Source of the DNA: Dehalococcoidia bacterium
Lineage (GTDB): Bacteria > Chloroflexota > Dehalococcoidia > UBA2979
Reading direction: 5' to 3'
Length of the DNA: 64,000 nucleotides
Assembly: GCA_965262725.1 (NCBI GenBank)
Contig: OZ253555.1
Coordinates: forward strand, 2,176,001-2,240,000
Each line of letters opens with the position of its first letter. Within the stretch, counting starts at the first letter, position 1. Positions 9,867 to 58,383 of this stretch are shown piece after piece. The translations under genes were made by a program, and so were the position numbers. The notes beneath the pieces were generated by a model. The model did not search any database, was not told the origin of the DNA, and was given only the letters and a program-made list of their open reading frames with translations.

Positions 9867-10640
9867 TCAGCTCCCCGCCGCCTGCTGGGCGCGGAGGGAG
9901 AGCAGCGCCTCGCGCGCCGCCCCCTTCTCCGCCTGCTGCTTGCTCCACCCGTAGCCGGTGCCGGCCGGCTCACCGTCGAGGCGCACCTCGACCCCGTAGT
10001 AGCGCGCGTGCTCCGGCCCCTCCTCGGCGATGAGGACGTAGTCCGGGCGCACCCCCGCCCCCTGCGCGAGCTGCTGGAGAGCGCCCTTCGCGTTGAGCAG
10101 GTCGTCGTCGACGCCGAGCACCTCGAACTCGTCCGAGAGGCTCTCCCTGACGAAGGAGCACGCCGCGTCGAGCCCGCGGTCGAGCAGGACGGCGCCGACG
10201 AGCGCCTCGTAGGCGCGCTCGAGGTTGCCCTCGCGCTCGTGCCCGCCGGTCGACTTCTCACCCCGCCCCAGCCGCAGCGCCGGGCCGAGCCCGAGCGCGC
10301 GCGCGACGCGGGCGAGCGTCGGGCCGCAGACGAGCTGCGCGCGCCACTGGGTCAGGAGCCCCTCCTGCACGCCGGGGTGCCGGGCGAAGAGCTCGTCGGC
10401 GACCGCGAAGCCGAGCGCCGCGTCGCCGAGGAACTCGAGGCGCTCGTTCGACTCGCCTCCATCATCGGGGTGCTCGTTGACCCAGGAGGCGTGCGTGAGG
10501 GCCGTGGCCAGGAGGGCGCGGTCCGAGAACGAGAAGCCGACGCGGCTCTCGACCGCCGCCAGGGCGTCCCGCCCCTCCGCGGGGGCGCCGCCGCCCGGGG
10601 CCGCCGGATCGCATGCGGGGGCTCTCTCCTGGGCGAGCAC
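9867..10640 (-). CDS. rnc: Ribonuclease III
   Basis: 'NERLEFLGDA' signature plus C-terminal dsRBD ('NAKGALQ', 'SKQQAEKGAA'); start approximate. Confidence 0.95.
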   Translation of the reverse strand: MLAQERAPACDPAAPGGGAPAEGRDALAAVESRVGFSFSDRALLATALTHASWVNEHPDDGGESNERLEFLGDAALGFAVADELFARHPGVQEGLLTQWRAQLVCGPTLARVARALGLGPALRLGRGEKSTGGHEREGNLERAYEALVGAVLLDRGLDAACSFVRESLSDEFEVLGVDDDLLNAKGALQQLAQGAGVRPDYVLIAEEGPEHARYYGVEVRLDGEPAGTGYGWSKQQAEKGAAREALLSLRAQQAAGS

Positions 10641-10803
10641 CGGCAACTCCCTGCCACGCCGGCCGCGCGCGTACGATCGGCTCGCACGCCGGGTCCCCGC
10701 CCGGGTGCGGCCGGCTGCTCGCACGCCGAGGGGGAGCTGCGACGCGTGGCTACCGCGATCGTAGGGAGAGCCGATCGGGGTGTCAATAATCGCTCACCCG
10801 CCT

Positions 10804-12069
10804 ATGCGCCCTACCCCGGTGAGGCTGCGCCGGGTCCTCGCCGAGGATCTCGGGCGGCTCCTCGACGCGGCGGTCGCCGCGGCGCTCGCCCGGGGGCTCG
10901 CGCTGTGGGCGGTCGGCGGGTGCGTGCGCGACGTCGCCCTGTCCGTCCCGCCCGGCGAGGTCGATCTCGCCGTCGACGGCGATGTGGAGCCGATCGCGAG
11001 GAGCGCGGCCGCGGCGCTCGGCCTCCCCCGGAGGGCCGTCCGTTTCGAGCCCCGCTTCGGCACCGCGTCGGTCGAACTTGCGGGCGGAGCCGGCCGGCTC
11101 GATCTCTCCCGGCTCCGCACCGAGCGCTACGCCCGGCCGGGCGCCCTCCCCGAGGTGCGGTTCTCCGCGACCATCGAGCAGGATCTCCGGCGGCGCGACT
11201 TCACGGTGAACGCGGTCGCCCTTCTCCTGAGCGCGCCGGGCGAGGGGCCGCGCGCGGGCGTCGTCGTCGACCCGCTCTCCGGCATCGCCGACCTCGAGGC
11301 CGGCGTGCTGCGCGCGCTCCACCCCCGCTCCTTCGCCGATGACGCGACGCGGATCTGGCGGGGGGCGCGCTACGCGGCGCGCTTCTCGCTTCGGCCCGAC
11401 CCCCCGACGAGGCGCCTGATCGAGGAGGGGGCGCGCCACCTGGCTCCAGTCTCGGGCCACCGGCTGTGGTCGGAGCTCGAACGGCTCGCCGGTGAACGCC
11501 GCGTGGGCGCCGCGCTCGCGCTCCTGGCCGGCTGGGGCGCGCTCTCCGGCACGCATCCCGGTCTGGGGGCGGAGGGAGGGGCGCTCCGCGCGCTGCGCCG
11601 GAGGCGGGGGCCGCTCCCCGCCGATCTCCTCGTCGCGCTCCTGCTCGCGGAGTCCCCCGCCCGGGCGCGTGCGGGCGTTCTGCGCCGCCTCTCCTCGCCG
11701 CGGGGGGCGCGCCTCGCCGTGGAGGGCGCCTCGACGCTGCTTGAGGCGGGCAGGCGGGACGAGAGCCCGCCCGAACCCGCGGAGCTCGAGCAGCTCGCCG
11801 CGACCACCGAGAGCGGGCGCCGGGCCGCGCGCTGGCTCGACCCGGGCCGCCAGCGGCCGCTGCAGCGGGAGCTGCGGCGCTGGGAGCGCACGAGCCCGCC
11901 CCTCGCGGCGCGGGAGCTGATGGCACTCGGCGTGGAGCGGGGGCCGGAGATCGGGCGATTGCTAGCCCTCTTGCGCCGCGAGCGCTACCTCGGCACGCTG
12001 CGGGGCGCGGCGCAGGCGCGGGCCCGGGTCCGATCCGAGCTCGACGCCGCGCGGCGCTCGGAGGGCTGA
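10804..12069 (+). CDS. cca: tRNA nucleotidyltransferase (CCA-adding/poly(A) polymerase family)
   Basis: 'VGGCVRD', 'EVDLAV', 'DLRRRDFTVNA', 'SFADDATRIWR'; start approximate. Confidence 0.88.
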   Translation: MRPTPVRLRRVLAEDLGRLLDAAVAAALARGLALWAVGGCVRDVALSVPPGEVDLAVDGDVEPIARSAAAALGLPRRAVRFEPRFGTASVELAGGAGRLDLSRLRTERYARPGALPEVRFSATIEQDLRRRDFTVNAVALLLSAPGEGPRAGVVVDPLSGIADLEAGVLRALHPRSFADDATRIWRGARYAARFSLRPDPPTRRLIEEGARHLAPVSGHRLWSELERLAGERRVGAALALLAGWGALSGTHPGLGAEGGALRALRRRRGPLPADLLVALLLAESPARARAGVLRRLSSPRGARLAVEGASTLLEAGRRDESPPEPAELEQLAATTESGRRAARWLDPGRQRPLQRELRRWERTSPPLAARELMALGVERGPEIGRLLALLRRERYLGTLRGAAQARARVRSELDAARRSEG

Positions 12070-12464
12070 TGGACGTGAGTGGTGCCGAGGCCTGCCCGGG
12101 GGGCGGCGTGCCCCCGGCCGGGTGTGCGATCTGCGGCCTGGCGGAGGAGGACCCGCGGCTGCTCGCGCCCTGCTACGGCTGCAGCCGCCCCTTCCATTTC
12201 AACCCCTTCGCGGGTCCCGGCGTCGACTGCGGCTCTGTCTGGGCCGGGAGTTCCCCCGACGACGGCTTCACCGGCCTCGAGTTCTACTGCGCCCCCTGCT
12301 TCGGGGAGCGGCACCCTGAGGCGGTCGCACCCGAACCCGTTCGGCTCCCGGCAATCGGTGCGGCCGGGGGAGAGGCGTCGGCTCGCGGCGAGGGACCGCC
12401 CCCCAGGCCGGAGCGTTCCCGGTGGCCCAGGCGCTACCGCAGGCGCGACGGGGGTGCTCCGTGA
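12069..12464 (+). CDS. Small Cys-rich protein with C4-H-C3 (PHD/RINGv-like) zinc-finger spacing
   Basis: TGATG overlap with the cca stop; CxxC-x12-CxxC-x4-H-x10-C-x19-CxxC. Confidence 0.75.
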   Translation: MDVSGAEACPGGGVPPAGCAICGLAEEDPRLLAPCYGCSRPFHFNPFAGPGVDCGSVWAGSSPDDGFTGLEFYCAPCFGERHPEAVAPEPVRLPAIGAAGGEASARGEGPPPRPERSRWPRRYRRRDGGAP

Positions 12465-12757
12465 GCGACGCCTCCGGCCCACCGCCGCGACGCCGCCGTC
12501 CGGGGCGCGGTGCCCGCCGCGAGCGGCCGCCTCCAGCGCCCCCCGCGCCCGGCGGGCGCTGGTCCAGCCGGGCGCTCGTGCTTGCGCTCCTCGTTGGCGC
12601 CTGGGTGGGGCGTCAGGCGGCCATCCTGCCGGAGGCGGGGGAGCGGATCCTCGACCTCGCGATCGCGGTCGGGATCGCCGTGATGGTCGCGCTGAGCTAT
12701 CGGCGGCTCGCGCGCCGCTACCGGCGGCCCCGCTCCGGGCGATCGAGCCGGCGGTAG
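12461..12757 (+). CDS. Small two-TM membrane protein, hypothetical
   Basis: GTGA overlap with the upstream stop; two hydrophobic segments flanked by Arg-rich ends. Confidence 0.6.
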   Translation: MSDASGPPPRRRRPGRGARRERPPPAPPAPGGRWSSRALVLALLVGAWVGRQAAILPEAGERILDLAIAVGIAVMVALSYRRLARRYRRPRSGRSSRR

Positions 12758-13233
12758 AACCATCCGCACCCCTCGGGGGCGGCCTCCGGCGCGCCCTCCG
12801 CGCAGGGCGCGCCTCCCTCCGGGGGCTCGAGGAGGGGCCGGTATCCGGCGCGGAGCCAGAAGTAGACGCCGCGGCCGTTCCGGCGGGGGACGCTCGCGTA
12901 GACGGCCTGGGAGCCCTCACGGCCCAGGCGCCGCTCGGCGGCGAGCACCGCGCGGAGCCCAACGGCGCGTCCCCGCCGCTCGGGCGCGACCGCGACGGCG
13001 AGCACCGTCGCCGCCGACTTGCCGGGTCCCGGCGTGAGCACGAGCACGCCGGCCGTCTCACTCTCCTCCCGCACCAGCAGAAGCGTGGCCCCCGTCGGAC
13101 GCGGCGGGAGCGGTCCGTCGTAGCCGCGCGCCACCCCGTCGGCGAGCGCGCGCCGGAGGGGCGCTGAGTCCGGCAGCGCGTCGGCCTGGTGGAGCGAGAC
13201 GCCCTCCGCCTCCGACCAGGCGGCGAGGCTCAC
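12718..13233 (-). CDS. GNAT family N-acetyltransferase
   Basis: 'VAVAPERRGRAVG' acetyl-CoA loop and 'N..GVYFWLRAGY'; GTGA overlap with the dinG stop. Confidence 0.75.
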   Translation of the reverse strand: MSLAAWSEAEGVSLHQADALPDSAPLRRALADGVARGYDGPLPPRPTGATLLLVREESETAGVLVLTPGPGKSAATVLAVAVAPERRGRAVGLRAVLAAERRLGREGSQAVYASVPRRNGRGVYFWLRAGYRPLLEPPEGGAPCAEGAPEAAPEGCGWFYRRLDRPERGRR

Positions 13234-16217
13234 CGCTTGAGCCAGTCCGCCACCGCGGGAGCGATCGCTTCGGCTGAGAGCTCCCGCCGCTCGCAGTCGG
13301 GGAGTGCGCCGAGGAACGAGGCGCCGTAGCCCCGCGTGGTGAGGCGGCCGTCGAGCACCAGGAAGACGCCGCGCTCCCCCGGGCCGCGGATCAGACGCCC
13401 GAAGCCCTGGCGGAAGCGCAGCACCGCCTGCGGGAGCACGTACTCCGTGAAGGGGTCGTCGTACTGCTCCGAGCGGCCGGCGTGGACGGGATCGGTCGGG
13501 ACGGGGAACGGGAGGCGCGCCATCACCAGCAGCTGCAGCGCGTCGCCGCGCACGTCCACGCCCTCCCACAGTGCCGCCGTCCCCAGGACCAGCGTGCGCG
13601 GCTGCGTGCGGAGCTGCCGGAGCAGCTGATCGGGCGACCCGTCGACTCCCTGCGCGAGCACGGAGATGCCCGAGGCCGCGAGCACGGGGCGGAGCGCCCG
13701 CCCGGCGGCGCGCAGCGCCGCGTGCGAGGTGAAGAGGGCGAGCGTCCGCCCGCCGGCCGCCTCCGTCGCCTCGGCGAGCACGCGCCAGGCCGACTCCTCG
13801 TAGTCGGGCGACCCCGGCTCCGCGATCTCCTCTATGTGGAGCGCCAGCACGGCGCGGCGGTAGTCGAAGGGGGAGGGGATGGCGAGCGTCTCGGGACCGC
13901 TCTCCCAGGAGCCCCGGAGCCCGAGCCGGCGCGCCGAGAACGCGAAGGGATCGGTCTCGCCCTCCGGCCGCCCCTCCACGACCGGGGGATCGGCCCGGCT
14001 CCCGCGGCCGCGCGCACGGCGACTGGGAGTGCGGGGAGTCGCGAGCGTGGCGCTCGTGGCGATCACGGTGTCGCAGTCGTCGTAGAGGTCGCGCGCGAGC
14101 GCCTCCCCGACGTCGAGCGGGGCGAGCTCGAGCCGTGTCTGGAGGGGCCGCGGGCCTCCCGCCTGATCCGGCGCCGCGGCCCAGACAACGGCGCCCGCCT
14201 CCGCCGAGAGCACCGTGCGAGCGAGGGTCTCGCGGCGCTCCGCGAGGGCCGCCGCCGAGCGCTCCAGCGCGGCGCGCACCCCCTCCTGGTCGGGAATCGC
14301 CCCGGCGGGCAGCTGCTCGACGGCGAGCACCGCCTCGGTGAGCCGGCGGCCGACGCCGCCGAGCGCGATGTCCAGGTCGAGCGCCGCCCCCTCGGACTCC
14401 TCCCACGGGTGGAGTCCGCGGCGGCCGGGCGTGATGGCGGCGACGAGCTCGGCCGAGACGCCCCCCGCGGCCGGCTCGGAGAAGGTGGCGAGGAACGCCG
14501 AGAGCGCCTCCCCGAGCGGGGCGAGCTGCGTGGCGGCGGCCGTGCAGGCGCGCCTGAGATCGCGCGCGACGCCCTCGAGCGCCGCCGCCGGCGCGAGCGG
14601 CTGATCGCCCGGCGGGCGCACCGCGTGCTCGAGCGGGGCTGCGAGGCCGCGTGGCCCGCGGGGGTCGAGGAGCTCGGCGAGCTCTGCGAGCGCGAGGCGG
14701 GCCCCGTACTGCTGCGTCGCCACCTCCTCCAGGCGGTGCGCCTCGTCGATGACGAGGCGGCGGAACGGAGGGATCGCCTGCTCCCCCACGCTCGCCGCGG
14801 CGAGCAGCAGGGCGTGGTTCACGACCACGACGTGGGAGGCGTGCGCTCGCTGGCGGGCGCGCAGCAGGAAGCAGCTGCCGTCGCGGACGTAGGCGCAGCG
14901 GCGCGAGAGGCAGTCGACGCCCTCGCTGGAGAGCTGCCGCCAGCGGCGGCGGTCGCCGCGGCGGAGTGCGAGCTCGGCCACGTCCCCGCTCTCGCTGGTG
15001 GGGAGCCAGAGCGCGATCTGGGCGAGGAAGCGCGCCTCCTCCTCGTCGAGCGGCGCCTGCGCCTCCCGCGCCTCGACCCAGCGTTCGCGGCAGAGATAGT
15101 TGGCCCGTCCCTTCAGGACGGCCCAGCGGAGCGGACCGGCTCCCGGGCCGCCCGCCTCGTCGTCGAGCGCCGCCGCGCGCTCCACGAGGGCGGCCGCCCG
15201 CGGGAGCTCGCGCTCCGCGAGCTGCTCCTGGAGGTTGAGGGTGTGCGTCGAGATCACGGCGCGGTCGCCCGAGCGGCGCGCGTGGGCGAGCGCCGGGATC
15301 AGGTAGGCGAGCGACTTCCCGGTCCCGGTTCCCGACTCGACGAGGATGCGACCACCCCGGGCGAAGCCCTCGCGCACCGCCTCGGCCATCTGCTGCTGCC
15401 CCGCGCGCGGCTCGTAGCCCGGCAGCAGCCCGGGCGTCCGCTCCGCGAGGGCGAAGAGCCGCGCGAGCGTGCCGGTGCCGAGCGGTTCCCAGTCCTCGAT
15501 CGGCTCGATCGGAGGCGCCGGACGGGCCGCGGGGGCCGTGCCGGTGTGTGAGGCCGCGTCGCCAACCCCGGCCGCGTCGGTCGCCGCGGCCTCCGCGGCG
15601 AGCTCGAAGAGTCGCCGGGCCGGCCATCCCGCGCGCGCAGCGAGGTGCGCGAGGTCGAGCAGCAGCGTGCGCGGGAGCGCGTCGAGTTCGTCCAGCAGCC
15701 TCAGGAAGACGTCACGCGTCGCCTCGGCATCCGCCAGGGCGCGGTGCGGCCGGGCGTTCGAGACGCCGAAGTGAGCGGCGAGAGCCGCGAGGGAGAGGCG
15801 GGGATTCCTCGGCAGCAGCACCGCCGCGAGGTCGTGCGTGTCGTGGACCTCCCCCGGAAGCTCGAGCCCGGCCGCGCGCAGGAAGCCCAGGTCGAAGCCG
15901 ACGCTCTGCCCGACGATCGGGAGCCCCCCGCAGAAGGCGCGCAGCTCCTCCATCACCGTCCGCGCCGCGGGCTCGCCGGCGACATCGGAGTCGCCGATGC
16001 CCGTCAGCTCGCGGATCTCTTCGGGGATGGGACGGCCGGGATCGACGAGGCTCTCGAACGCCTCGGCGCGGCCCGAGCGGTCAAAGCGGGTCGCGCCGAC
16101 ATCGATGATGCGGTCGGTGGCGGCGTCGAATCCGGTCGTCTCGAGGTCGATGGCGACGAAGACGGGCCCCGCCCCTGCGCTGCGGGACGTCCGGGCTGCC
16201 GGCGCCGGGGGCCGCAC
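13230..16217 (-). CDS. dinG: DEDDh exonuclease-DinG helicase fusion (Fe-S type)
   Basis: N-terminal 'IDLETTG..HRALADA'; GTGTGKS; four Cys (NYLC..DC..RC..SC); DEAH; 'QGFGRLIR'. Confidence 0.92.
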   Translation of the reverse strand: MRPPAPAARTSRSAGAGPVFVAIDLETTGFDAATDRIIDVGATRFDRSGRAEAFESLVDPGRPIPEEIRELTGIGDSDVAGEPAARTVMEELRAFCGGLPIVGQSVGFDLGFLRAAGLELPGEVHDTHDLAAVLLPRNPRLSLAALAAHFGVSNARPHRALADAEATRDVFLRLLDELDALPRTLLLDLAHLAARAGWPARRLFELAAEAAATDAAGVGDAASHTGTAPAARPAPPIEPIEDWEPLGTGTLARLFALAERTPGLLPGYEPRAGQQQMAEAVREGFARGGRILVESGTGTGKSLAYLIPALAHARRSGDRAVISTHTLNLQEQLAERELPRAAALVERAAALDDEAGGPGAGPLRWAVLKGRANYLCRERWVEAREAQAPLDEEEARFLAQIALWLPTSESGDVAELALRRGDRRRWRQLSSEGVDCLSRRCAYVRDGSCFLLRARQRAHASHVVVVNHALLLAAASVGEQAIPPFRRLVIDEAHRLEEVATQQYGARLALAELAELLDPRGPRGLAAPLEHAVRPPGDQPLAPAAALEGVARDLRRACTAAATQLAPLGEALSAFLATFSEPAAGGVSAELVAAITPGRRGLHPWEESEGAALDLDIALGGVGRRLTEAVLAVEQLPAGAIPDQEGVRAALERSAAALAERRETLARTVLSAEAGAVVWAAAPDQAGGPRPLQTRLELAPLDVGEALARDLYDDCDTVIATSATLATPRTPSRRARGRGSRADPPVVEGRPEGETDPFAFSARRLGLRGSWESGPETLAIPSPFDYRRAVLALHIEEIAEPGSPDYEESAWRVLAEATEAAGGRTLALFTSHAALRAAGRALRPVLAASGISVLAQGVDGSPDQLLRQLRTQPRTLVLGTAALWEGVDVRGDALQLLVMARLPFPVPTDPVHAGRSEQYDDPFTEYVLPQAVLRFRQGFGRLIRGPGERGVFLVLDGRLTTRGYGASFLGALPDCERRELSAEAIAPAVADWLKR

Positions 16218-23576: not shown

Positions 23577-23845
23577 CGGTCGTGCCCCGCCGTCGAATCG
23601 CACCACGAGCATCTCCCCGTCCGGCAGCTCAAGCCCGGCACCCCTGCGGCACCCGATAGGACCGACGTACCGCTGCTTCCTTCCGGACCTGACGGGGTTG
23701 GCCGGGTATCGCCGCGCAGGACCAGACTCTCAACGCCGCCTCGCGGGGCGAGCGGCTCCTGATGTCGACCCTCGGGCGGGCATTCAGTCCCGCTGAAGCG
23801 GATTGCGGGTACAGGGCACCGCTAGCTCCCCACCTAGCACGACCG
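23577..23845 (-). ncRNA. ffs: Large (Alu-domain-containing) SRP RNA
   Basis: Minus strand contains the domain IV signature GTCAGGTCCGGAAGGAAGCAGC; the 5' part 'CGTGCTAGGTGGGGAGCTAGCGGTGCCCTGTACCCGCAATCCGC' resembles the Bacillus scRNA Alu domain; the ends pair (CGGTCGTGC/GCACGACCG). Confidence 0.95.
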
Positions 23846-23851
23846 CGGCCG

Positions 23852-23857
23852 ATCGTA
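23852..23857 (-). promoter_or_regulatory. -10 element (TACGAT) of the SRP RNA
   Basis: 6 nt upstream of the predicted RNA 5' end. Confidence 0.65.
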
Positions 23858-23985
23858 GGCGCGCGCCCGCCCCCCGGTCAAAGCGCCGGGCCGGGCGCTC
23901 GGGCGCCGGTCGCGACGGCGCTCACCGCAGGCAGCGGATACGATGTCTCGCGGGTTGGCGCGGCAGGGCGCCCGGGAGGCTGACG

Positions 23986-25371
23986 ATGCGCGTGCTCTCG
24001 ATCGGTCATCCGCTGCCCAACTCGGCCGTAGACAACCGCTCGATCTTCGATGCGCCGACGCTCTTCGACTACGAGGCGATCGTCATCGATCTGGCGGCGG
24101 TACAGGAGTCGGTACGCGAGGCCGCCCTGGCGACGGCGCCGCATCAGACCTCCGCCGGCGTCCCGGTCGTGAACGGCGAGAGCATCGGCGGTGCCTCGGG
24201 CCTCGCCGAGCTCCTGAACCGCCGCCGCGACGAGATGACGCGCGCGCTCGAGCGCGGAGCCGTCGTCGCGGCCTACCTCTATCCGACCTCGCTCGTTACG
24301 GAGGTGGCCGGGATGAGCGGTCTCGACCGCTACTTCCTGCTCCCCGCCCCCGCCGGGATGGGGTGGGACGCGCAGACGATCCGGGGTGGCGAGGGCCGCA
24401 CCGGAGCGATCGTCGATCACGCCCATCCCTTCGCCTCCGTCGTGGAGGCGACCCGCAGGCGACTCCACTACCGCGCCTACCTGAACGATCGCGCCCGGGG
24501 TGTGGCCGAGCATGCGCGTGTTTTCGTGCGCTCGGTGGGCGGGGCGCCGATCGGGGCGCAGATGCCGCTGCTCGCCGGCCAGCTCATCCTGCTTCCGGCG
24601 ATCACCTCGGCCAGCTCCACGCAGGCGATGCCCGAGGCGCAGGCCGTGGTCGCGGCGATGCAGGAGGCTCTGGGCCGGGTCGACGACGACCGGAGGCCGG
24701 GCTGGCTCGACGATCAGCCCGTGCCGGGGCTCGCGGAGCGCGAGGAGAAGGTCGACGAGACGCGCGCAGCCCTCGAGCGAGCGCAGGGCGCCTTCGACGA
24801 TGCCCGGGCCGCCGCCGGTGAGCTGAGCCCGCTGCGCGAAGTGCTCTGGCGCGCCGGCGAGCAGGCGCTCATGCCGGCCGTCGTGCGCTGCCTGGAGCTG
24901 CTCGGCTTCAGCGCGCGCGAGGACGGGTCGGGATGGCTGCTGACATCGCCCGAGGGAGAGCTGCTGCTCGAGGCGGAAGCCTCGGAGCGCGAGGTCAGGA
25001 TGGATCCGCACTATCGCCTGCGTGCGCGCGCCGACCGGCTGCTCGAGGAGCGGGCGCGCCCCGCGCGCGGCCTGATCGTGATCTCCGGGCACCGGATGAC
25101 GGAGCCGGTCAGGCGTGAGGCGCAGCCCGGCGACGCGCTCAGGGTCGCAGCCGAGTCTGTCGGCTACGCGCTCCTGACGGTGGACGAGCTCTTCTCGGCC
25201 GCCAGCTCGGCCCTCGCTCACGCCGACGGGACGGAGGGGGGCGCCGACGAGGCGACCCTCGCCGGCTGGCGCGCATGCCTCGTCGCAGGGGAGGGCCTCG
25301 TCACGCTCGCAGGGAGCGATTCCGGGGAGGCCGACGGCGGGGGAGAGGGCGAGCGCGAGGGGGAGGACTAG
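23986..25371 (+). CDS. Hypothetical protein: alpha/beta N-domain, coiled coil, degenerate PD-(D/E)XK-like C-domain
   Basis: GGAGG SD; 461 aa; C-terminal 'LELLGF..LLLEAEAS..RGLIVISG..YALLTVDELF' follows a restriction-endonuclease-like layout. Confidence 0.7.
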   Translation: MRVLSIGHPLPNSAVDNRSIFDAPTLFDYEAIVIDLAAVQESVREAALATAPHQTSAGVPVVNGESIGGASGLAELLNRRRDEMTRALERGAVVAAYLYPTSLVTEVAGMSGLDRYFLLPAPAGMGWDAQTIRGGEGRTGAIVDHAHPFASVVEATRRRLHYRAYLNDRARGVAEHARVFVRSVGGAPIGAQMPLLAGQLILLPAITSASSTQAMPEAQAVVAAMQEALGRVDDDRRPGWLDDQPVPGLAEREEKVDETRAALERAQGAFDDARAAAGELSPLREVLWRAGEQALMPAVVRCLELLGFSAREDGSGWLLTSPEGELLLEAEASEREVRMDPHYRLRARADRLLEERARPARGLIVISGHRMTEPVRREAQPGDALRVAAESVGYALLTVDELFSAASSALAHADGTEGGADEATLAGWRACLVAGEGLVTLAGSDSGEADGGGEGEREGED

Positions 25372-27370: not shown

Positions 27371-28237
27371 TCAGGGGGAGGTCGCCGCTGCCGGAGCGAC
27401 CGGCTCATCGTTCGTGTCGCGCGCTCTCCACCGCCTGTTCACTACGGCGGCCGCGCCGAAGAATGCCGTGGCGACCAGCGCCATCGCGGGCCCCGAGGGC
27501 AGGTCGGCGTGGAACGAGAGGTAGAGGCCTCCCACCGCCGACGCCGCTCCGATCAGGGCCCCGACGATCATGACTCCGACGAAGCGCCGGGCGAGGAGAT
27601 AGCCGCTCGCCGCGGGCGTGATGAGCATCGCCATCACCAGGACGATCCCAGCGGCCTGGATGCCGATCACGATGACGAGAGCCAGCAGCGCGAGCAGCAC
27701 GTACTCCACGAACCCCGTCCGGATGCCGGCGACCGTCGCCCCCACGGGGTCGAACGTCGTGTACACGAGCTGGCGATGGAAGGCGTAGAGCCCGGAGAGC
27801 ACGACCGCGGTGAGCACAAGCGAGACGAGAACGTCGGTTCGCGAGACGCCGAGCAGCTGCCCGAGCAGGAGGTCCTCGATGTTGACGGTGACGTTGGTGG
27901 CCTTCGAGAGCATCACCAGCCCGAGCGCGAACAGCCCGGCGAAGAGGATCCCGATGGATGTGTCCTCGCTGATGCCGGTGCGCCGGCTGATCGATCCCAT
28001 CAGGAGCGCGATCGCGACCCCGGCCGGGACGGCCGCCAGGAACGGGCTGATGCCGAGGAGGAAGGCGACGACCATCGCGGGGAGCACCGAGTGCGCGAGG
28101 GCGTCCCCCATGAACGCGCGGCCGCGCGTGATGACGTAGGCCCCGAGGACGGGGCACATCACGCCGACCAGCACGGAGACGACCAGCGCCCGCACCATGA
28201 ACGAGTACTGGAACGGCCCGATCACGTAGTCGATCAC
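27371..28237 (-). CDS. Zn/Mn ABC transporter permease
   Basis: 'FMGDALAHSVLP', 'EDTSIGI', 'MLITPAA', 'PSGP'. Confidence 0.93.
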   Translation of the reverse strand: MIDYVIGPFQYSFMVRALVVSVLVGVMCPVLGAYVITRGRAFMGDALAHSVLPAMVVAFLLGISPFLAAVPAGVAIALLMGSISRRTGISEDTSIGILFAGLFALGLVMLSKATNVTVNIEDLLLGQLLGVSRTDVLVSLVLTAVVLSGLYAFHRQLVYTTFDPVGATVAGIRTGFVEYVLLALLALVIVIGIQAAGIVLVMAMLITPAASGYLLARRFVGVMIVGALIGAASAVGGLYLSFHADLPSGPAMALVATAFFGAAAVVNRRWRARDTNDEPVAPAAATSP

Positions 28238-28992
28238 GGGCGGCGCTCCCCCGTGGCGCCGTCAGGGTGGGAGAACTCGACACCATGGGAGCCGTAGAGC
28301 TCCTCGAGCACCTCGGGCGTGAAGGCCTCCGCGGGCGGACCGTAGGCGCAGACGTGGCGGTTGATGCAGAGCACCCGATCGAAGCGCTCGGCGAGGTTGG
28401 TGAGATCGTGGGTGGCGAGGAGCACGATCCGCCCCTCGTCGCGCAGCGACTGCAGCACCCGCACGATCCCCTCCTGGGCCGCGACGTCGACGCCGCTGAA
28501 CGCCTCGTCGAGCAGGATGATGCGTGCGTCCTGGGCAAGGGCCCGCGCGATGAAGACGCGCTGGCGCTGGCCGCCCGAGAGCTCCGTCATCAGCGCCTGC
28601 CGCCGATCCCACAGGCGGACGCGCTCGAGGCAGGCGCGGGCCACCTCGCGGTCCTGCGTGCTCAGGCGCCGGTACCACGCGATGTGACTGGACCGCCCCA
28701 TCATCACCACGTCGAGGGCCGTCGCGGGGAAGTTCCAGTTGATGGAGTCGCGCTGCGGGACGTACGCGAGCGCCCCGCGGCGATCCTCCGTTCCGCGCAA
28801 CGTGACCGTGCCCCGCGTGATGGGATGCACGCCCGCGATCGCGTCGAAGAGCGTGCTCTTGCCGGCGCCGTTCGGACCGAGCACGCCCATCAGCGTGCCG
28901 CGATCGACCTCGAAGGTGACGTCCTCAAGCGCCTGGTACCCGTCGTGCTCTACGACGACGCCCGCGACCGCGATCCCGGGCTCAGAGTGCAT
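28234..28992 (-). CDS. Zn/Mn ABC transporter ATP-binding protein
   Basis: GPNGAGKS, 'YVPQ', LSGGQRQR, LLDE, 'THDL'. Confidence 0.94.
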   Translation of the reverse strand: MHSEPGIAVAGVVVEHDGYQALEDVTFEVDRGTLMGVLGPNGAGKSTLFDAIAGVHPITRGTVTLRGTEDRRGALAYVPQRDSINWNFPATALDVVMMGRSSHIAWYRRLSTQDREVARACLERVRLWDRRQALMTELSGGQRQRVFIARALAQDARIILLDEAFSGVDVAAQEGIVRVLQSLRDEGRIVLLATHDLTNLAERFDRVLCINRHVCAYGPPAEAFTPEVLEELYGSHGVEFSHPDGATGERRP

Positions 28993-29070
28993 GCTGCGCC
29001 ACCTCCGCGGCAGCCGCGGCTATCCGCTACCGCGCGCGATTCCTGCCGCGACCCCTGCGCGACAACGCGC

Positions 29071-30276
29071 TCACCTCAGCGCCTCGACGATGCGCGCGAC
29101 GTTCGTGCGCACCATCTCGAGGTAGGTCTCTGCGCCGCTACCCCGGACGCCGAGCGACCCGGAGTAGAGCCGGACCAGCTCCGCACCCGACTCCTCAGCC
29201 ACCGCCGCGGCAAGCCGCTCGCTCACCGTCGTCTCGCCGAAGACGGCCGGCACGCCGAACTCCTCTATCTCGTGGACCAGCTCCGCGAGGTCGGTCGCCG
29301 ACGGCGTTGCCTCGGTGGTGGTGGAGAGGATAACGCCGACCACGTCGAAGCCGTAGAGCGCGGCGAAGTAGCCCAGGCTGTCGTGGGAGGTCAGGAGCAG
29401 TCGCCGGTGCTCCGGCACGGCCACGACCTGCTCCGCCGTCCAGCCGTGCAGCAGGTCGAGCTCCGCCCTGTAGGCCGACGCGCCGGCCCGGTACGCGTCG
29501 CCCCGCTCGGGGTCGAGCTCCGTGAGGCGCGCGGCGATCGCGTCGACGGCGAGCTTCACACGGAGCGGATCGAACCAGAAGTGGGGGTCGTAGAGGCCGT
29601 GGCCGTGGTCGTCGTGCTCGCCCTCCTCCTCGCCGACGAGCCCCTCGATGGCCTCGATCGCGGCGGAGGGCCCCCTGCGCCCGGCCTCGGCCTCCTGGAT
29701 GACCGCGAGGACCATCTCGACTACGTCCTCGTCCGCTTCGCGGTGCTCGTCGTCCTCCCCGTCGCCAGCGAGCATCGCCGCGATCTGCCGCAGGGCCTCC
29801 TCGGCGTCGACCTCGCCCTCCTCGACCTCGTGGACGATCTCCTCCAGCTCCTCGAGGAACACGATCTCATCCGCGTGGGACGCGCCGAACTCGAGGGGAT
29901 CGATGAGCTCGCCGAGCTCCACGATCGCCGACGGATCCTGAGAGGCGTTCTCGAGGAGCTCCACGAGCCACGACCCCTCAAGGCCGAGGCCGACCGCCAG
30001 CACCAGGTGGGCGTCGGCGATTCTCGCCACGTCGCGCGCTCCGGGCTGGAACGAGTGAGGGTCGGCTCCGACCGGCACCAGGCTGAAGACGTCGACGTGC
30101 TCACCGCCGACGTTCTCGACCCAGTCGGCGACGACGTTCGTGGTCGTGACCACGCGGACGCGAGGGTCCGCGCCGGCGCCACCGCCGCCGGAGCTGCCGC
30201 CCCCGCACGCGGCGAGAAGCGCCAGTCCGGCGACCAGGGCGAGCGGCGCGAGCGCTGCCATCGTCGCGTGGCGCAT
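29071..30276 (-). CDS. Zn/Mn ABC transporter substrate-binding lipoprotein
   Basis: LAAC lipobox; 'DPHSF', 'DPHFW', 'HDSLGYF'. Confidence 0.93.
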   Translation of the reverse strand: MRHATMAALAPLALVAGLALLAACGGGSSGGGGAGADPRVRVVTTTNVVADWVENVGGEHVDVFSLVPVGADPHSFQPGARDVARIADAHLVLAVGLGLEGSWLVELLENASQDPSAIVELGELIDPLEFGASHADEIVFLEELEEIVHEVEEGEVDAEEALRQIAAMLAGDGEDDEHREADEDVVEMVLAVIQEAEAGRRGPSAAIEAIEGLVGEEEGEHDDHGHGLYDPHFWFDPLRVKLAVDAIAARLTELDPERGDAYRAGASAYRAELDLLHGWTAEQVVAVPEHRRLLLTSHDSLGYFAALYGFDVVGVILSTTTEATPSATDLAELVHEIEEFGVPAVFGETTVSERLAAAVAEESGAELVRLYSGSLGVRGSGAETYLEMVRTNVARIVEALR

Positions 30277-34567: not shown

Positions 34568-34652
34568 TGGTGGGGAAGAGGAGATTCGAACTCCCACGCC
34601 TCGCGGCACATGATCCTAAATCATGCTCGTCTACCGGTTCCGACACTTCCCC
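34568..34652 (-). tRNA. tRNA-Leu (anticodon TAG)
   Basis: 85-nt cloverleaf with long variable arm, CATGA-TTTAGGA-TCATG anticodon arm, GTTCGAATC, encoded CCA. Confidence 0.96.
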
Positions 34653-34707: not shown

Positions 34708-34783
<76 letters not shown>

Positions 34784-35117: not shown

Positions 35118-35771
35118 TCAGTAGAGGTGTGGCTGGACGTAGGAGGCGATCGAGAGCTCCAGGTCGAGGATGACCTGGGACATCGCCTGGCTGATGAGGT
35201 CGAGCTTCCGCACCTGCTCGATGCGCGCGGAGACGTTCTCCAACTCCTGCCGGGAGAGTAGCCGGTCGAAGATCCCGCACGCATGGGCCAGGGCAATGAT
35301 CACGACGTCCCGTGGATCCGGGATCGCGTCGCTGAACAGCACCTCCATGATGCGCAGCTTGACCTCGCGCTCGGCCTCGCCCTGGAGCAACGGATAGCGC
35401 CTCGACCGGAAGACCCAGAGGAAGCGCTCCTCGCGCTCCTCCAGGATCCCGTGGTCCACCAGCCGGACGAGCGCCTCCTGGCGGACCTCGTCGGCGCGGT
35501 TCGCCGTGCGCTGCACCCAGAAGCGGGCGTCGCCGCCCTCGTGCGATCCGATGTCGGCGAGCGTGGGGTCGAGCAGGCTGTCGCCCAGGGGCGTCGCGTC
35601 CAGAACGATCAGCCGGTCGAGGTCGGTGTCGATCCGGTTCTCGAGCGCTAGATCCATCAGCACGCCGCCGGCGAGCGCGTAGTCCAGGGAGGCGCGGGGG
35701 ACGCGCGCGAAGGTCCCGTCCGTGTCGTCGAGCAACAGCAGGATGATCTCCTCGGCGAATCTGAGTTTGAT
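35118..35771 (-). CDS. GPP34/GOLPH3-family (Golgi phosphoprotein 3-like) protein
   Basis: 'LRFAEEIILLLLDD..G', 'LAGGVLMDLALENRI', 'LVDHGIL......LWVF...RYP'; start inferred at ATC. Confidence 0.8.
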   Translation of the reverse strand: MKLRFAEEIILLLLDDTDGTFARVPRASLDYALAGGVLMDLALENRIDTDLDRLIVLDATPLGDSLLDPTLADIGSHEGGDARFWVQRTANRADEVRQEALVRLVDHGILEEREERFLWVFRSRRYPLLQGEAEREVKLRIMEVLFSDAIPDPRDVVIIALAHACGIFDRLLSRQELENVSARIEQVRKLDLISQAMSQVILDLELSIASYVQPHLY

Positions 35772-35823: not shown

Positions 35824-35900
35824 TGGTGGGCGATAGTGGATTCGAACCACTGACCTCTGCGATGTCAACGCAGCGCTCTAACCAACTGAGCTAACCGCCC
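35824..35900 (-). tRNA. tRNA-Val (anticodon GAC)
   Basis: 77 nt; CTGCG-TTGACAT-CGCAG; GTTCGAATC; encoded CCA. Confidence 0.97.
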
Positions 35901-56070: not shown

Positions 56071-56500
56071 CGTCGGCTCTCGCGTCGCCCCCTGCAGAAG
56101 GGTCGCGGCGTGCGTCCAGGAAGCGCTGCAGGATCATCGCCGCCGCGATGTCGTCCGAAGGCCGCTTCCGCCGGGAGGCTGGCCTCCCGGTCGTGCGCAG
56201 TGCCTCCTCCGCCGCCCAGGTCGTGAGCCGCTCGTCTGCGTACTCGACCGGGAGGCCGAGAGCGGCGAGCCGCGTGCCGAGGCGGCGCGCCGCCCGGGCC
56301 GCCTCGCCCTCCGAGCCGCCGAGCGTGAGCGGCAGACCCACCACGATGCCGCCGGCCTGCTCGCGGGCGGCGGTGGCGCGGACGGCGGGGAAAGCGGCGG
56401 AAGCAGGCACCACCTCGAGCGGGACGGCGAGCCGCTCGTCGTCGTCGCAAATCGCGAGCCCCACTCGCTCGCTGCCGGGGTCGACCCCGATCCAGCGCAT
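56057..56500 (-). CDS. ruvX: YqgF/RuvX pre-16S rRNA nuclease
   Basis: 'GVDPG..RVGLA', 'VVGLP', 'DERLTT', 'D..AA..ILQ'. Confidence 0.94.
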   Translation of the reverse strand: MRWIGVDPGSERVGLAICDDDERLAVPLEVVPASAAFPAVRATAAREQAGGIVVGLPLTLGGSEGEAARAARRLGTRLAALGLPVEYADERLTTWAAEEALRTTGRPASRRKRPSDDIAAAMILQRFLDARRDPSAGGDARADDASA

Positions 56501-58383
56501 CAGCGAAGCCGCGCCCGGCCCCGCGTGTCGGACCCCGCACGCGCGAGCAGCGGCGTGGGCTCGCCGCCATTCGGGCTCCGGCTCTCCTCGCCGTCCCCGT
56601 CCGGAGAGGCCTCCTCCGGCTCCGCCTCGCCCTCCTCCTGCGGCTCCTCGAGCATCCCGGCGAAGTCGATCGCGATGCGCTCGGCGCGGCGCGGCATCCA
56701 GCGCCAGGGCACCCACTCCGGCTCGAGCGTTACCCGGGGCGCCTCCTCAAGGCCGAGACGCTCGACCAGCCTCGCGGCGGCCACGCTCGGCTCGACGCCC
56801 GTGAGCTCGGCGCGCAGGGGATCGAGGTCGGGGACGGCGTGGACGCGTCCTTCCACCATGATGACGACGCCGCCGCCCGCTCCCTCCGGGGCGGCGGCGA
56901 GCGTAGCGGAGACCGTGTCGTGGAGGAGCGCGACGCCGTCGGGGAGGGCCTCCTCGATCAGAAGCCGGCCGTAGGCCTCGGCAGTGGCGACGGTGACGGC
57001 GAGCCCCGAGGCGAGCGCGGTGTAGTCCATGAGGAAGACATCGGTCGCCTCGCCGAGCAGCGACTCCGGCCGCTCTGTCAGGATCACGACGCCCACCGTC
57101 TCCTCGAGCAGGGTCGCCTCCTCGGAGGCGTCGCGCAGCGCCCGCGTCGCGGCCCGGGCGAGCACCGCCCGGGCGAGCTCGCGGAGGCGGTCCACGTCCT
57201 CCTGCGCGACCGCCGGGACCAGTATGTTGGTGCCGCCGTCGGCGGCGACCGGGTTGATCACGGTGAGCGAGGCTGGCAGCTCCGTGCCGAGCACGCCGAT
57301 CTCCCCGGGGGCGACGTTGCCGTCGACGCCGGAGAACTCCGCTGCTGCGCCCACGTCGACCGATTCGCCGGGGGGCACCACGACCGGCTCGTCGGTGAGG
57401 AAGGCCGTCCCGGAGTCCGTCCGGGCCACCGTGTCCGCTGGCAGATCGATGTGGGCGTCGCTCGCGTTCGCGAAGCGCAGGATCGTGGTGGCGCGGTCGT
57501 CGCCGATCTCGGTCTCGCCGGTCGGCACGGTGGCGAGCGTCGCCGAGATCTCGCGCTCGACGCTCTCCGCGGGGACGATGGCGAGCGAGATGTCAGGCGC
57601 CTCGATCAGGGGCTGTGGCCGGACCTGCGCCGAGCGGCTGATGGGCTCGCTCGCCGGCACGATCACTATGCGCGCCGAGGGCAGCTGGTAGCACGCTGCG
57701 ACACCGGCGAGCGCGACCGCGGCGAGGAGGAACAAGCCGCGGAGCGACGAGCCGAGTCGCGGCTTGGGGATGGTGAAGACGCGCGCGCCGAGGCGCAGGC
57801 GCCACGGCCCGCGGCGTAGTCCACGCGGCGAGCGCGCTGCTCGCAGCCCGTTGGCGCGCGCGTGCGCGCGCACGTCGCCGCGCGAGGAGACAACGCCGAG
57901 CGCGGTTCCCCTCCTCCGGACGTGGGCGGCGACGTGCGCCCACGCCGCCGCCGACCGGAGCGCGCGCGCGCCCCGCGGCACCAGCAACATGATGTCGGGC
58001 TCGGTCGCAGTGTCGATTCGGCCGGTCACCGCCAGCCAGTCGTCGTCGCGGCGGGCAACGATCGTGGCGACCGGGATGGCCTCCCGCCGGCCGCGGTCGC
58101 GCCGGGGACGGGCCGTCCGGGCGGGCCGCTCCCGCCGCTCCCGGGAGGGGCGCCTGGTGACGAGCGCCCGCGCCGCGGTGCCGAGGCGCCGCAGGCCTGC
58201 TGCGGCTGTCCCGGCGAGTCGCCGTGCGCCGGCGCCTGCCGCCCGTCCCAGCCGACCGCAGGCCCGGCTGGCGCCCCCAGCGAGCGCGCCGCCCCTCGCG
58301 GCGATTCGCTCGCCGATGAGGCGCAGCCGTCCCGAGGCCGCTCCGGACGGCGGGCGGGAATTTCCGGGCCGATCCGGCGACAT
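56500..58383 (-). CDS. Membrane-anchored baseplate J/gp47-like protein
   Basis: Single central TM, then 'A.T.LRF.N......LPA.T.....SG..F.T...V..P......V...A...G..GNV..G.I' and 'V.N.....GG', resembling baseplate-J beta domains. Confidence 0.7.
   Translation of the reverse strand: MSPDRPGNSRPPSGAASGRLRLIGERIAARGGALAGGASRACGRLGRAAGAGARRLAGTAAAGLRRLGTAARALVTRRPSRERRERPARTARPRRDRGRREAIPVATIVARRDDDWLAVTGRIDTATEPDIMLLVPRGARALRSAAAWAHVAAHVRRRGTALGVVSSRGDVRAHARANGLRAARSPRGLRRGPWRLRLGARVFTIPKPRLGSSLRGLFLLAAVALAGVAACYQLPSARIVIVPASEPISRSAQVRPQPLIEAPDISLAIVPAESVEREISATLATVPTGETEIGDDRATTILRFANASDAHIDLPADTVARTDSGTAFLTDEPVVVPPGESVDVGAAAEFSGVDGNVAPGEIGVLGTELPASLTVINPVAADGGTNILVPAVAQEDVDRLRELARAVLARAATRALRDASEEATLLEETVGVVILTERPESLLGEATDVFLMDYTALASGLAVTVATAEAYGRLLIEEALPDGVALLHDTVSATLAAAPEGAGGGVVIMVEGRVHAVPDLDPLRAELTGVEPSVAAARLVERLGLEEAPRVTLEPEWVPWRWMPRRAERIAIDFAGMLEEPQEEGEAEPEEASPDGDGEESRSPNGGEPTPLLARAGSDTRGRARLR

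Follow-up and report, generated by a model that had tools for sequence, protein, structure and literature searches.

The subject of this report is a small gene for a predicted zinc finger protein, found in a 64,000-nucleotide stretch of DNA from a Dehalococcoidia bacterium (assembly GCA_965262725.1, contig OZ253555.1, positions 2,176,001 to 2,240,000 of the forward strand). The whole of this stretch is called "the window" here, and positions are counted from its first letter. The finger gene (12069..12464, plus strand) is a genuine and conserved gene, as judged by its translation, by its guanine plus cytosine (GC) content by codon position, and by its homologues. It encodes 131 amino acids, in which the finger is followed by a linker rich in proline, alanine, and glycine and, close to the C-terminus, by a basic motif. 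Upstream lies a gene for a nucleotidyltransferase (NTase), downstream one for a small membrane hairpin protein. The three form a translationally coupled unit, and this unit recurs at three of three loci.

An original prediction, made from the letters of the window, had described the product as a PHD/RINGv-like finger with the ligand order C4HC3 (four cysteines, a histidine, three cysteines), coupled to the tRNA CCA enzyme. The acidity of the finger, the linker, the C-terminal basic motif, and the coupled membrane-hairpin gene are features additional to that prediction.

The finger gene

The frame from 12069 to 12464 runs from ATG to TGA over 131 codons. Its translation places the ligands as C19-x2-C22-x12-C35-x2-C38-x4-H43-x10-C54-x19-C74-x2-C77. 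Residues 31-43 read LLAPCYGCSRPFH, F72 stands two positions ahead of C74, and W58 follows C54 as C54-x3-W. Thus, every residue named beforehand (the C4HC3 spacing, the PHD-like stretch, F72, and W58) is present in the translated frame.

The window is 73.7% GC and holds many spurious open frames; the coding signals of the finger frame were therefore checked. Over finger residues 1-85, GC at the three codon positions is 0.69/0.62/0.91. This same pattern is found in the adjacent genes for SMC, RNase III, the NTase, and DinG, and it is missing from alternative frames that overlap the finger gene. The final 46 codons are less typical (0.81/0.79/0.75, with 0.745 as the exact value at the third position, GC3). 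When the gene is compared with its counterparts at two related loci, called L001 and L002 and described below, a synonymous change with the residue kept is seen in 5-6 of 29 codons. A hidden Markov model scan of 735 stop-to-stop frames finds the gene in a single copy in the window.

A family with eight conserved ligands

Homologues were sought in several ways. A word-indexed search gave three relatives among 35 candidates, with identities of 92%, 92%, and 59%. HMMER, run exhaustively over 1.84 billion representatives (50% identity), delivered 49 proteins at E<=0.001, seven of them at <=1e-10, and a profile search gave 99 clusters (90% identity) at E<=1e-5 among 8000 scored candidates. The counts that follow refer either to an alignment of 51 sequences, from which P0049 was left out because its match is confined to the low-complexity tail, or to a stored family set of 138 proteins (139 in the Pfam scan).

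Wherever clusters of this family carry a name, the name is "hypothetical protein." In 98 of the 99 clusters, the precomputed Pfam column has no entry ("-"), the exception being P0044, a chimera whose entries are AAA-type domains only, and neither Pfam nor NCBIfam has a model for the family. Taxonomic labels are few, and all of them point to Chloroflexota: one NCBI record (P0126), two loci in metagenome-assembled genomes (Dehalococcoidia and Chloroflexia), and the nearest protein-atlas clusters. The protein-atlas search itself gave unnamed Chloroflexota clusters at 0.92 and otherwise weak named leads. As far as labels go, then, this is an unannotated family of small proteins restricted to Chloroflexota.

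The eight ligands are conserved in this family well beyond what chance would give. C19, C22, C35, C38, H43, and C54 are invariant in the 51-sequence alignment, as is G55, and L44, N45, P46, G51, D53, C74, and C77 are conserved at 90% or more; C9 and H82 show no conservation. Of the 51 aligned sequences, 49 carry all eight ligands in this pattern, as do 127 of the 138 stored proteins. Among these 127, the spacings between ligands 2 and 3, between ligand 4 and the histidine, and between the histidine and ligand 6 are 12/4/11 (n=73), 11/4/11 (n=32), or 12/4/10 (n=22). Thus, the ligands picked out in one translated frame are kept in order across homologues, and the description of the product as an uncharacterised prokaryotic C4HC3 finger stands.

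Eleven stored proteins lack the full pattern. Three of these (P0090, P0092, and P0103, a small clade) have DHGDAW in place of DCGDAW, so that histidine replaces the sixth ligand. Since this exchanges one ligand for another, the natural swap argues for metal binding at position 54. Five others (P0106, P0113, and P0139-P0141, of 79-113 residues) start past the first CxxC, and half of the proposed first zinc site is therefore absent; they may be products of miscalled starts or a true one-zinc variant. The remaining three (P0032, P0044, and P0138) are a fragment, a chimera, or divergent beyond ligand 6.

In PHD fingers, the consensus between ligands 5 and 6 is His-x2-Cys. Here, a family-specific insert separates H43 from C54 (12198..12227, plus strand), with the signature H-L-N-P-x(5-6)-G-x-D-C-G-D-A-W. 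The spacer is 10 residues in the window protein and 10 or 11 in all 127 proteins with the full pattern. The positions within and just after it are well kept: L44 in 46/51, N45 in 48/51, P46 in 48/51, G51 in 46/51, D53 in 49/51, G55 in 51/51, and D56 in 37/51. What had been noted as a deviation of a single protein (a spacer of 10 rather than 2) therefore holds family-wide; the 10-11-residue spacer is a fixed family character with a signature of its own.

Nearest kin by sequence

PHD fingers are seen as chromatin readers that belong essentially to eukaryotes. The window protein matches the Pfam PHD family (PF00628) at E 0.03 and 14.8 bits, over profile positions 1-25 of 47; the Pfam gathering cutoff is 24 bits. 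Across the 51 aligned members, PHD is the top Pfam family, with 39 matches at E<=0.1. The next families at this threshold are PHDvar_NSD (12 members), zf_Tbcl_Rhp7 (9), Prok-RING_1 (5), zf-PHD-like (3), and zf-RING_2 (2). Eight of 139 proteins match PHD at E<=5e-4, and five of these matches span the entire profile, positions 1-47.

A search of the PDB with the single finger sequence gave no significant match. With the family profile instead, 25 distinct PDB sequences come up at E<=10, all of which we take to be PHD-finger proteins. The best are 1wev (E 0.0046), WSTF 1f62 (0.0085), and MTF2 (0.042); others include PHF21A, KDM5A/B/D, AIRE, DPF3, KMT2D, Pygopus, UHRF1, ORC1B, and BPTF. The alignments with 1wev and MTF2 reach from the first CxxC to the last, with a gap at the extra residues that the family carries between the histidine and ligand 6.

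An aromatic residue two positions ahead of ligand 7 is a feature of PHD fingers. In the family, this position is phenylalanine in 31 of 50 sequences and tyrosine in 11. To this can be added the shared C4HC3 order, the shared arrangement of the first five ligands (C-x2-C-x(11-12)-C-x2-C-x4-H, as in WSTF 1f62, 1wev, and the first PHD finger of MTF2), and the stretch LL-x-x-C-x-x-C-x-x-x-[FY]-H. The family differs from PHD fingers, however, in its 10-11-residue spacer with its own motif, in its Pfam scores below the cutoff, and in a poorer structural superposition (template-modelling scores of 0.36-0.43 at about 6 Å). It also differs in being bacterial, in having no chromatin context, and in consisting of a strongly acidic stand-alone domain. 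By sequence, PHD is the nearest known family, although marginally so. Membership in the Pfam family fails, because the His-Cys spacing and the gathering cutoff both fail. Thus, one part of the proposed PHD likeness stands (nearest kin, ligand order, and aromatic residue), while the other part (the His-x2-Cys spacing and a Pfam score above the cutoff) does not.

Predicted fold and metal sites

The finger domain extends from C19 to about H82 (12123..12314, plus strand), limits that follow ligand conservation, the structural model, and Foldseek. It carries a net negative charge. This is true of the domain in 49 of 49 family members, with a range of -2 to -8 and a median of -6; the last 20 residues have a median of +6.

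An AlphaFold2 model built with the 51-sequence alignment has a predicted local distance difference test score (pLDDT) of 87-94 over residues 21-60 and of 93 over residues 71-80. The score is 47-50 over residues 91-110, as expected of disorder, and returns to 70 at residues 111-120. A model of the domain alone (residues 16-85) has a pLDDT of 88.9 and a predicted template-modelling score (pTM) of 0.75. Its strands (32-34, 41-43, 55-61, and 68-74) form two beta-hairpins, and a C-terminal helix (75-81) begins at the last CxxC.

Although no Foldseek match of the model is significant, the ranking of the matches is consistent. The best superpositions, given as template-modelling scores over the query (TMq) or target (TMt) with the root-mean-square deviation (rmsd), are rabphilin-3A (TMq 0.61, rmsd 3.0), the EEA1 FYVE domain (0.56, rmsd 3.2), Rim2 (0.55, TMt 0.63), and RIM (0.54, TMt 0.67), and a first Foldseek search had given RUFY 2yw8 (TMt 0.68, rmsd 2.9). 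The PHD fingers of UHRF1 and BAZ2A/B stand high in the Foldseek list, but superpose less well (TMq 0.36-0.43, rmsd about 6 Å). A LIM domain, with its sequential topology, reaches a Foldseek probability of only 0.11 and an rmsd of 8.9. Among viral models (BFVD), the matches are uncharacterised small zinc proteins only, the best at E 0.039. The best superpositions are thus on cross-braced FYVE-type fingers, and PHD fingers come out poorer.

In a cross-brace, one zinc is bound by ligands 1, 2, 5, and 6 and the other by ligands 3, 4, 7, and 8, as in WSTF 1f62, RING, and FYVE domains (PMC7614390). The finger of the window protein is almost certainly metal-binding, to judge from the ligands and their conservation, and most probably it holds two zinc ions, cross-braced as in the FYVE/PHD class. 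By analogy, the first zinc would be held by C19, C22, H43, and C54, and the second by C35, C38, C74, and C77.

FYVE-type fingers (EEA1 1joc, Vps27 1vfy, RUFY 2yw8, rabphilin-3A 1zbd, and RIM 2a20/2cjs) share with the model the two beta-hairpins and the C-terminal helix, superposing over about 65 columns with TMq 0.54-0.61, TMt up to 0.67-0.69, and rmsd 2.9-3.9 Å. They likewise arrange eight ligands in a cross-brace (PMC7614390). Unlike them, the family has an acidic domain and histidine as ligand 5, and the Pfam FYVE family is not among the 25 families listed for its members. FYVE domains bind phosphoinositides through basic motifs (WxxD, R[R/K]HHCR, and RVC). None of these motifs occurs in the window finger sequence; because these lipid-binding motifs are absent and the domain is acidic, it is not a FYVE domain.

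The bacterial Prok-RING_1 family (PF14446) offers a further comparison. It too is a small bacterial two-zinc treble clef, it matches five of the 51 members weakly, and it appears as a protein-atlas lead at 0.83-0.85. The difference is that the L002 protein scores 13.1 bits against a cutoff of 29.1, and that the ligand pattern, the insert, and the tail motif are specific to the present family. Burroughs, Iyer, and Aravind are said to have described, in 2011, prokaryotic radiations of two-zinc treble clefs of the RING, B-box, AN1, LIM, and ZF-UBP kinds, and not of the PHD kind. Searches of full texts and by motif turned up no paper that describes such a PHD-like finger from bacteria or from Chloroflexota.

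Linker and basic tail

Between the finger and the C-terminus lies a low-complexity linker rich in proline, alanine, and glycine (12315..12428, plus strand), which includes the residues of low pLDDT. Its length varies across the family, with a median of 58 residues and a range of 22-140, and its composition is 21% proline and 19% alanine. A patch of prolines (PPP) at its end is conserved; PP occurs within the final 27 linker residues in 96 of 105 proteins.

The linker is followed by the basic motif R121-R-Y-R-R-R-D127 (12429..12449, plus strand). The family consensus is R-R-[YF]-R-R-[IV]-D, placed 1-7 residues from the C-terminus. The motif is found inside the last 13 residues in 34 of 51 aligned and 110 of 138 stored proteins. 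On the family tree it is present in 106 of 131 rows, and its absences are at least 12 scattered ones together with one tail-less clade of six short proteins. The arginine codons that spell the motif are partly different between the window and L002.

A tail-less form is seen in the closest genome-derived homologue, from L001 (3929-4249, in a Dehalococcoidia metagenome-assembled genome). This protein ends in PPDRPAGGGAP and has no RRYRR, and its operon is kept together with both GTGA overlaps.

The three-gene unit

The upstream gene (10780..12069, plus strand) encodes a 429-residue class II nucleotidyltransferase of the CCA-adding/poly(A) polymerase family, recognised by its Pfam PolyA_pol head domain (E 1.7e-20). 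Among solved structures, Thermotoga maritima 3h37 comes closest (E 2.4e-32); it is presumably a CCA-adding enzyme, and is followed at about 1e-27 by 4wby and 1vfg (labelled "Poly A polymerase"), which we take to be the Aquifex A-adding enzyme. The RRRDFT and DDATR motifs are visible. Motif A is E-x-D in the window and D-x-D in L002 and T. maritima. Since the protein scores far under every NCBIfam equivalog cutoff (CCA-adding, A-adding, and PcnB; for example 93.8 bits against 438.8), its sequence marks it as a divergent lineage of the family. We call it a CCA-type class II tRNA nucleotidyltransferase, whose exact activity may be CCA-adding, A-adding, or another.

The window holds tRNA genes for Leu-TAG, Lys-CTT, and Val-GAC (34568-34652, 34708-34783, and 35824-35900, minus strand), and in all three CCA is encoded past the discriminator base. 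The NTase would therefore serve 3'-end repair rather than synthesis, at least for these tRNAs.

The downstream gene (12461..12757, plus strand) encodes a 98-residue protein predicted to form a membrane hairpin. It was delimited by its codon-position GC (0.82/0.70/0.88) and by alignment with the corresponding open reading frames at L001 and L002. Its N-terminus is rich in arginine and proline and bears PRRRR, hydrophobic stretches follow at about 35-50 and 61-81, and the tail reads Y-R-R-x-A-R. It has no Pfam, NCBIfam, or PADLOC family match. An in-frame GTG at 12422, inside the finger gene, is a less likely start; from it the hairpin frame reads AQALPQARR, the alternative frame of PRRYRRRD.

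The coupling lies in the junctions. The NTase stop codon (TGA, 12067-12069) shares one base with the finger ATG, as TGATG, and the finger TGA overlaps the GTG start of the hairpin gene, as GTGA. L001 and L002, the two loci confirmed out of 12 pattern matches in 185,579 species genomes (searched with a 12-sequence alignment), have the same overlaps of one or four bases at both junctions: GTGA and GTGA in L001, TTGA and TGATG in L002. Gene order at both is also that of the window: RNase III (minus), NTase, finger, and hairpin (plus), then GNAT and DinG-exonuclease (minus). A scan for promoters and terminators found no promoter-like site between the three genes; the only site found lies on the minus strand upstream of rnc. 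The coupling to the gene for the tRNA CCA-type enzyme, claimed at first for a single locus, is thus borne out at three.

What the finger may do

Our preferred account, to which we give an even chance of being right as a whole, joins these observations. It holds that the protein is a two-zinc, distantly PHD-like finger, encoded in a coupled unit, and that it acts as an adaptor which docks arginine-rich segments and so assembles or localises the products of its operon. Here, the acidic C4HC3 domain of about 60 residues would be a zinc-stabilised protein- or peptide-binding adaptor, and not a chromatin reader or an E3 ligase. Its acidic surface would dock an arginine-rich segment, which might be its own tail or one of the putatively cytoplasmic ends of the hairpin protein, PRRRR or YRR-x-ARR. 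The basic tail would give a second contact, with a partner, an anionic membrane, or RNA. The outcome would be that the operon products are assembled or localised.

The binding partners in this account, the adaptor role, the zinc stoichiometry, and the allotment of ligands to the two sites are all what we infer. A peptide-binding role is the most likely one by analogy with treble-clef fingers of the FYVE/PHD class. An acidic finger encoded beside arginine-rich segments is compatible with a putative binding of basic peptides, in the way that PHD fingers bind histone H3 tails or other N-terminal or basic peptides. The rise in pLDDT over the tail would be compatible with docking of the tail on the finger, and is a hint of this and no more. 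The reading of modified lysines, which the original prediction had also entertained, finds no support; the conserved basic segments that might be partners are rich in arginine and not in lysine.

Several facts weigh against this account. Foldseek gives no match at E<=0.001 in the PDB or BFVD, and all PDB E-values are at or above 0.17, a lack of significance that is usual for 60-residue domains. The predicted cross-brace topology follows from which structures superpose, and not from Cys-Cys distances. The PHD matches are marginal, the cutoff being reached by one of 139 family proteins (P0027, 24.0 bits). Because the L001 homologue and 25 of the 131 tree rows are without the basic tail, the tail is not indispensable. 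The genomic context comes from three loci, two of which are fairly close relatives (68% identity). Finally, no fused NTase-finger form was found among the 8000 candidates, which is weak evidence, and P0011 and P0014, which at first sight join finger and hairpin, have the look of frameshifted reads. In P0014, the DNA that codes for RRYRR is translated in the frame of the hairpin gene (AQALP..RR). A supposed long form, P0026 (321 residues), has a domain identical to that of the ordinary 140-residue P0065, with an apparent frameshift. All three are probably frameshifted assemblies rather than natural fusions.

Some other explanations concern what the protein is. High-GC DNA of this region does give many long open frames, and GC3 in the last 46 codons is atypical (0.745); the idea that the frame is a spurious product of a 74% GC genome has nonetheless practically no chance of being right, and is refuted by the conservation of the protein family: the searches gave 49 representatives (50% identity) and 99 clusters (90%), GC3 is 0.91 across the finger, and the tail motif is kept at the protein level although its codons differ. 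It would be extremely unlikely, too, for the protein to be a RING/RINGv-type, E3-like finger in a bacterial system of ubiquitin-like conjugation. The C4HC3 order is common to RINGv, the weak Prok-RING_1 matches in five members reach E 0.012 at best, and the atlas lead to the same family has been mentioned. A role in ubiquitin transfer is not necessarily implied by a prokaryotic binuclear treble clef, however. RINGv fingers have a conserved tryptophan after ligand 6, and W58, on which the suggested RINGv likeness was built, is present in 30 of 51 members; RINGv is not among the 25 Pfam families listed for these members, zf-RING_2 appears in two of the 51 at E<=0.1, and the PDB profile matches are PHD only. 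Neither the genes around the finger in the window, L001, and L002 nor 33 further window genes encode an E1, E2, Ubl, or JAB protein. With no sequence support, an unconserved tryptophan, and no ubiquitin-like context, the finger is not of the RING or RINGv type, and the suggested E3 role finds no support. In principle, Fe(Cys)4 sites might be built from the four CxxC-type pairs, and weak Pfam matches to double zinc ribbons exist (DZR in 3/51, Zn_ribbon_6 in 3/51, P0056 at E 0.00032). An iron-binding or redox-active protein, or one with two independent knuckles (rubredoxin-like, Fe-S, or two sequential zinc ribbons), is nevertheless very unlikely, as an invariant histidine, and a ligand 6 that changes from cysteine to histidine in three members, typify zinc sites, and the model fits cross-braced domains at about 3 Å and sequential LIM domains poorly.

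The remaining explanations accept the finger and differ in what it serves. It might be an accessory subunit of the NTase that binds tRNA or other RNA, the arginine-rich motif holding the tRNA while the finger sits on the enzyme and tunes the addition or repair of CCA. This would fit the translational coupling with the NTase gene at all three loci and the basic tail seen in 110 of 138 proteins, and since the three window tRNAs encode CCA, the enzyme would be one of repair or quality control, a setting that makes specificity factors plausible. The finger is strongly acidic, however, the L001 protein is tail-less and yet its operon is retained, and the NTase has the full length that is normal for its kind and can be aligned with enzymes that stand alone; we consider such a subunit an unlikely candidate. 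Quite unlikely, in our view, is that the finger is tied to the hairpin protein only, the two forming a small membrane-associated regulatory pair whose adjacency to the NTase is synteny without shared function. The GTGA or TGATG overlap with the hairpin gene is found at all three loci, the acidic finger and the arginine-rich hairpin termini have complementary charges, and the entire neighbourhood (rnc, NTase, finger, hairpin, GNAT, dinG) is syntenic, which makes adjacency weak evidence for shared function. Against this, the NTase-finger overlap is as tight as the finger-hairpin overlap, and the finger-hairpin "fusions" in the databases seem to have arisen by frameshift. The boldest form of the adaptor account would make the family a bacterial branch of the PHD/FYVE fingers and a "tail reader," whose acidic, cross-braced finger binds its own RRYRRID, being then autoinhibited, or the PRRRR terminus of the co-translated hairpin protein, and thereby switches or localises an enzyme of tRNA 3'-end repair at the membrane. 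We hold this to be a long shot. If true, it would offer a prokaryotic antecedent of histone-tail reading, tied to RNA metabolism and not to chromatin.

A coherent Chloroflexota family whose nearest sequence kin is PHD would provide a bacterial reference for the origin of the PHD/FYVE fold, and it would define a new protein family model. The finding is, besides, a pointer to an accessory module, as yet unstudied, that would belong to a CCA-type tRNA nucleotidyltransferase.

Surrounding genes and other features of the window

Convergent with the three-gene unit is a gene for a GNAT-family acetyltransferase (12718..13230, minus strand; Pfam Acetyltransf_1, E 2.7e-06), whose start is not fixed. 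Its 3' end overlaps that of the hairpin gene by 40 bases (12718-12757), and all three loci have a GNAT gene in this position. PADLOC gave no defence match for the finger, NTase, hairpin, and GNAT proteins, and Rfam, with a threshold as loose as E 0.1, found nothing in 10000-13500. Core housekeeping functions make up the rest of the window: FtsY, SMC, KsgA, the SRP RNA, LepA, aminoacyl-tRNA synthetases, IF3, and shikimate genes. This region is not a mobile or defence island.

A few further genes may be recorded. A 522-residue protein (23803-25371, plus strand) has a coding-type GC pattern and no Pfam match at E<=1e-5. A 626-residue protein (56500-58383, minus strand), also with coding-type GC, has a weak Baseplate_J match (E 9.1e-6) in which no single stretch passes alone. 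A metal uptake operon of the ZnuA/ZnuC/ZnuB type (27371-30276, minus strand; ZnuA E 2.4e-76, ABC_tran, ABC-3) lies about 15 kilobases from the finger gene. Between the tRNA genes, finally, is a bacterial homologue of GPP34/GOLPH3 (35118-35735, minus strand; PF05719, E 2.5e-40).

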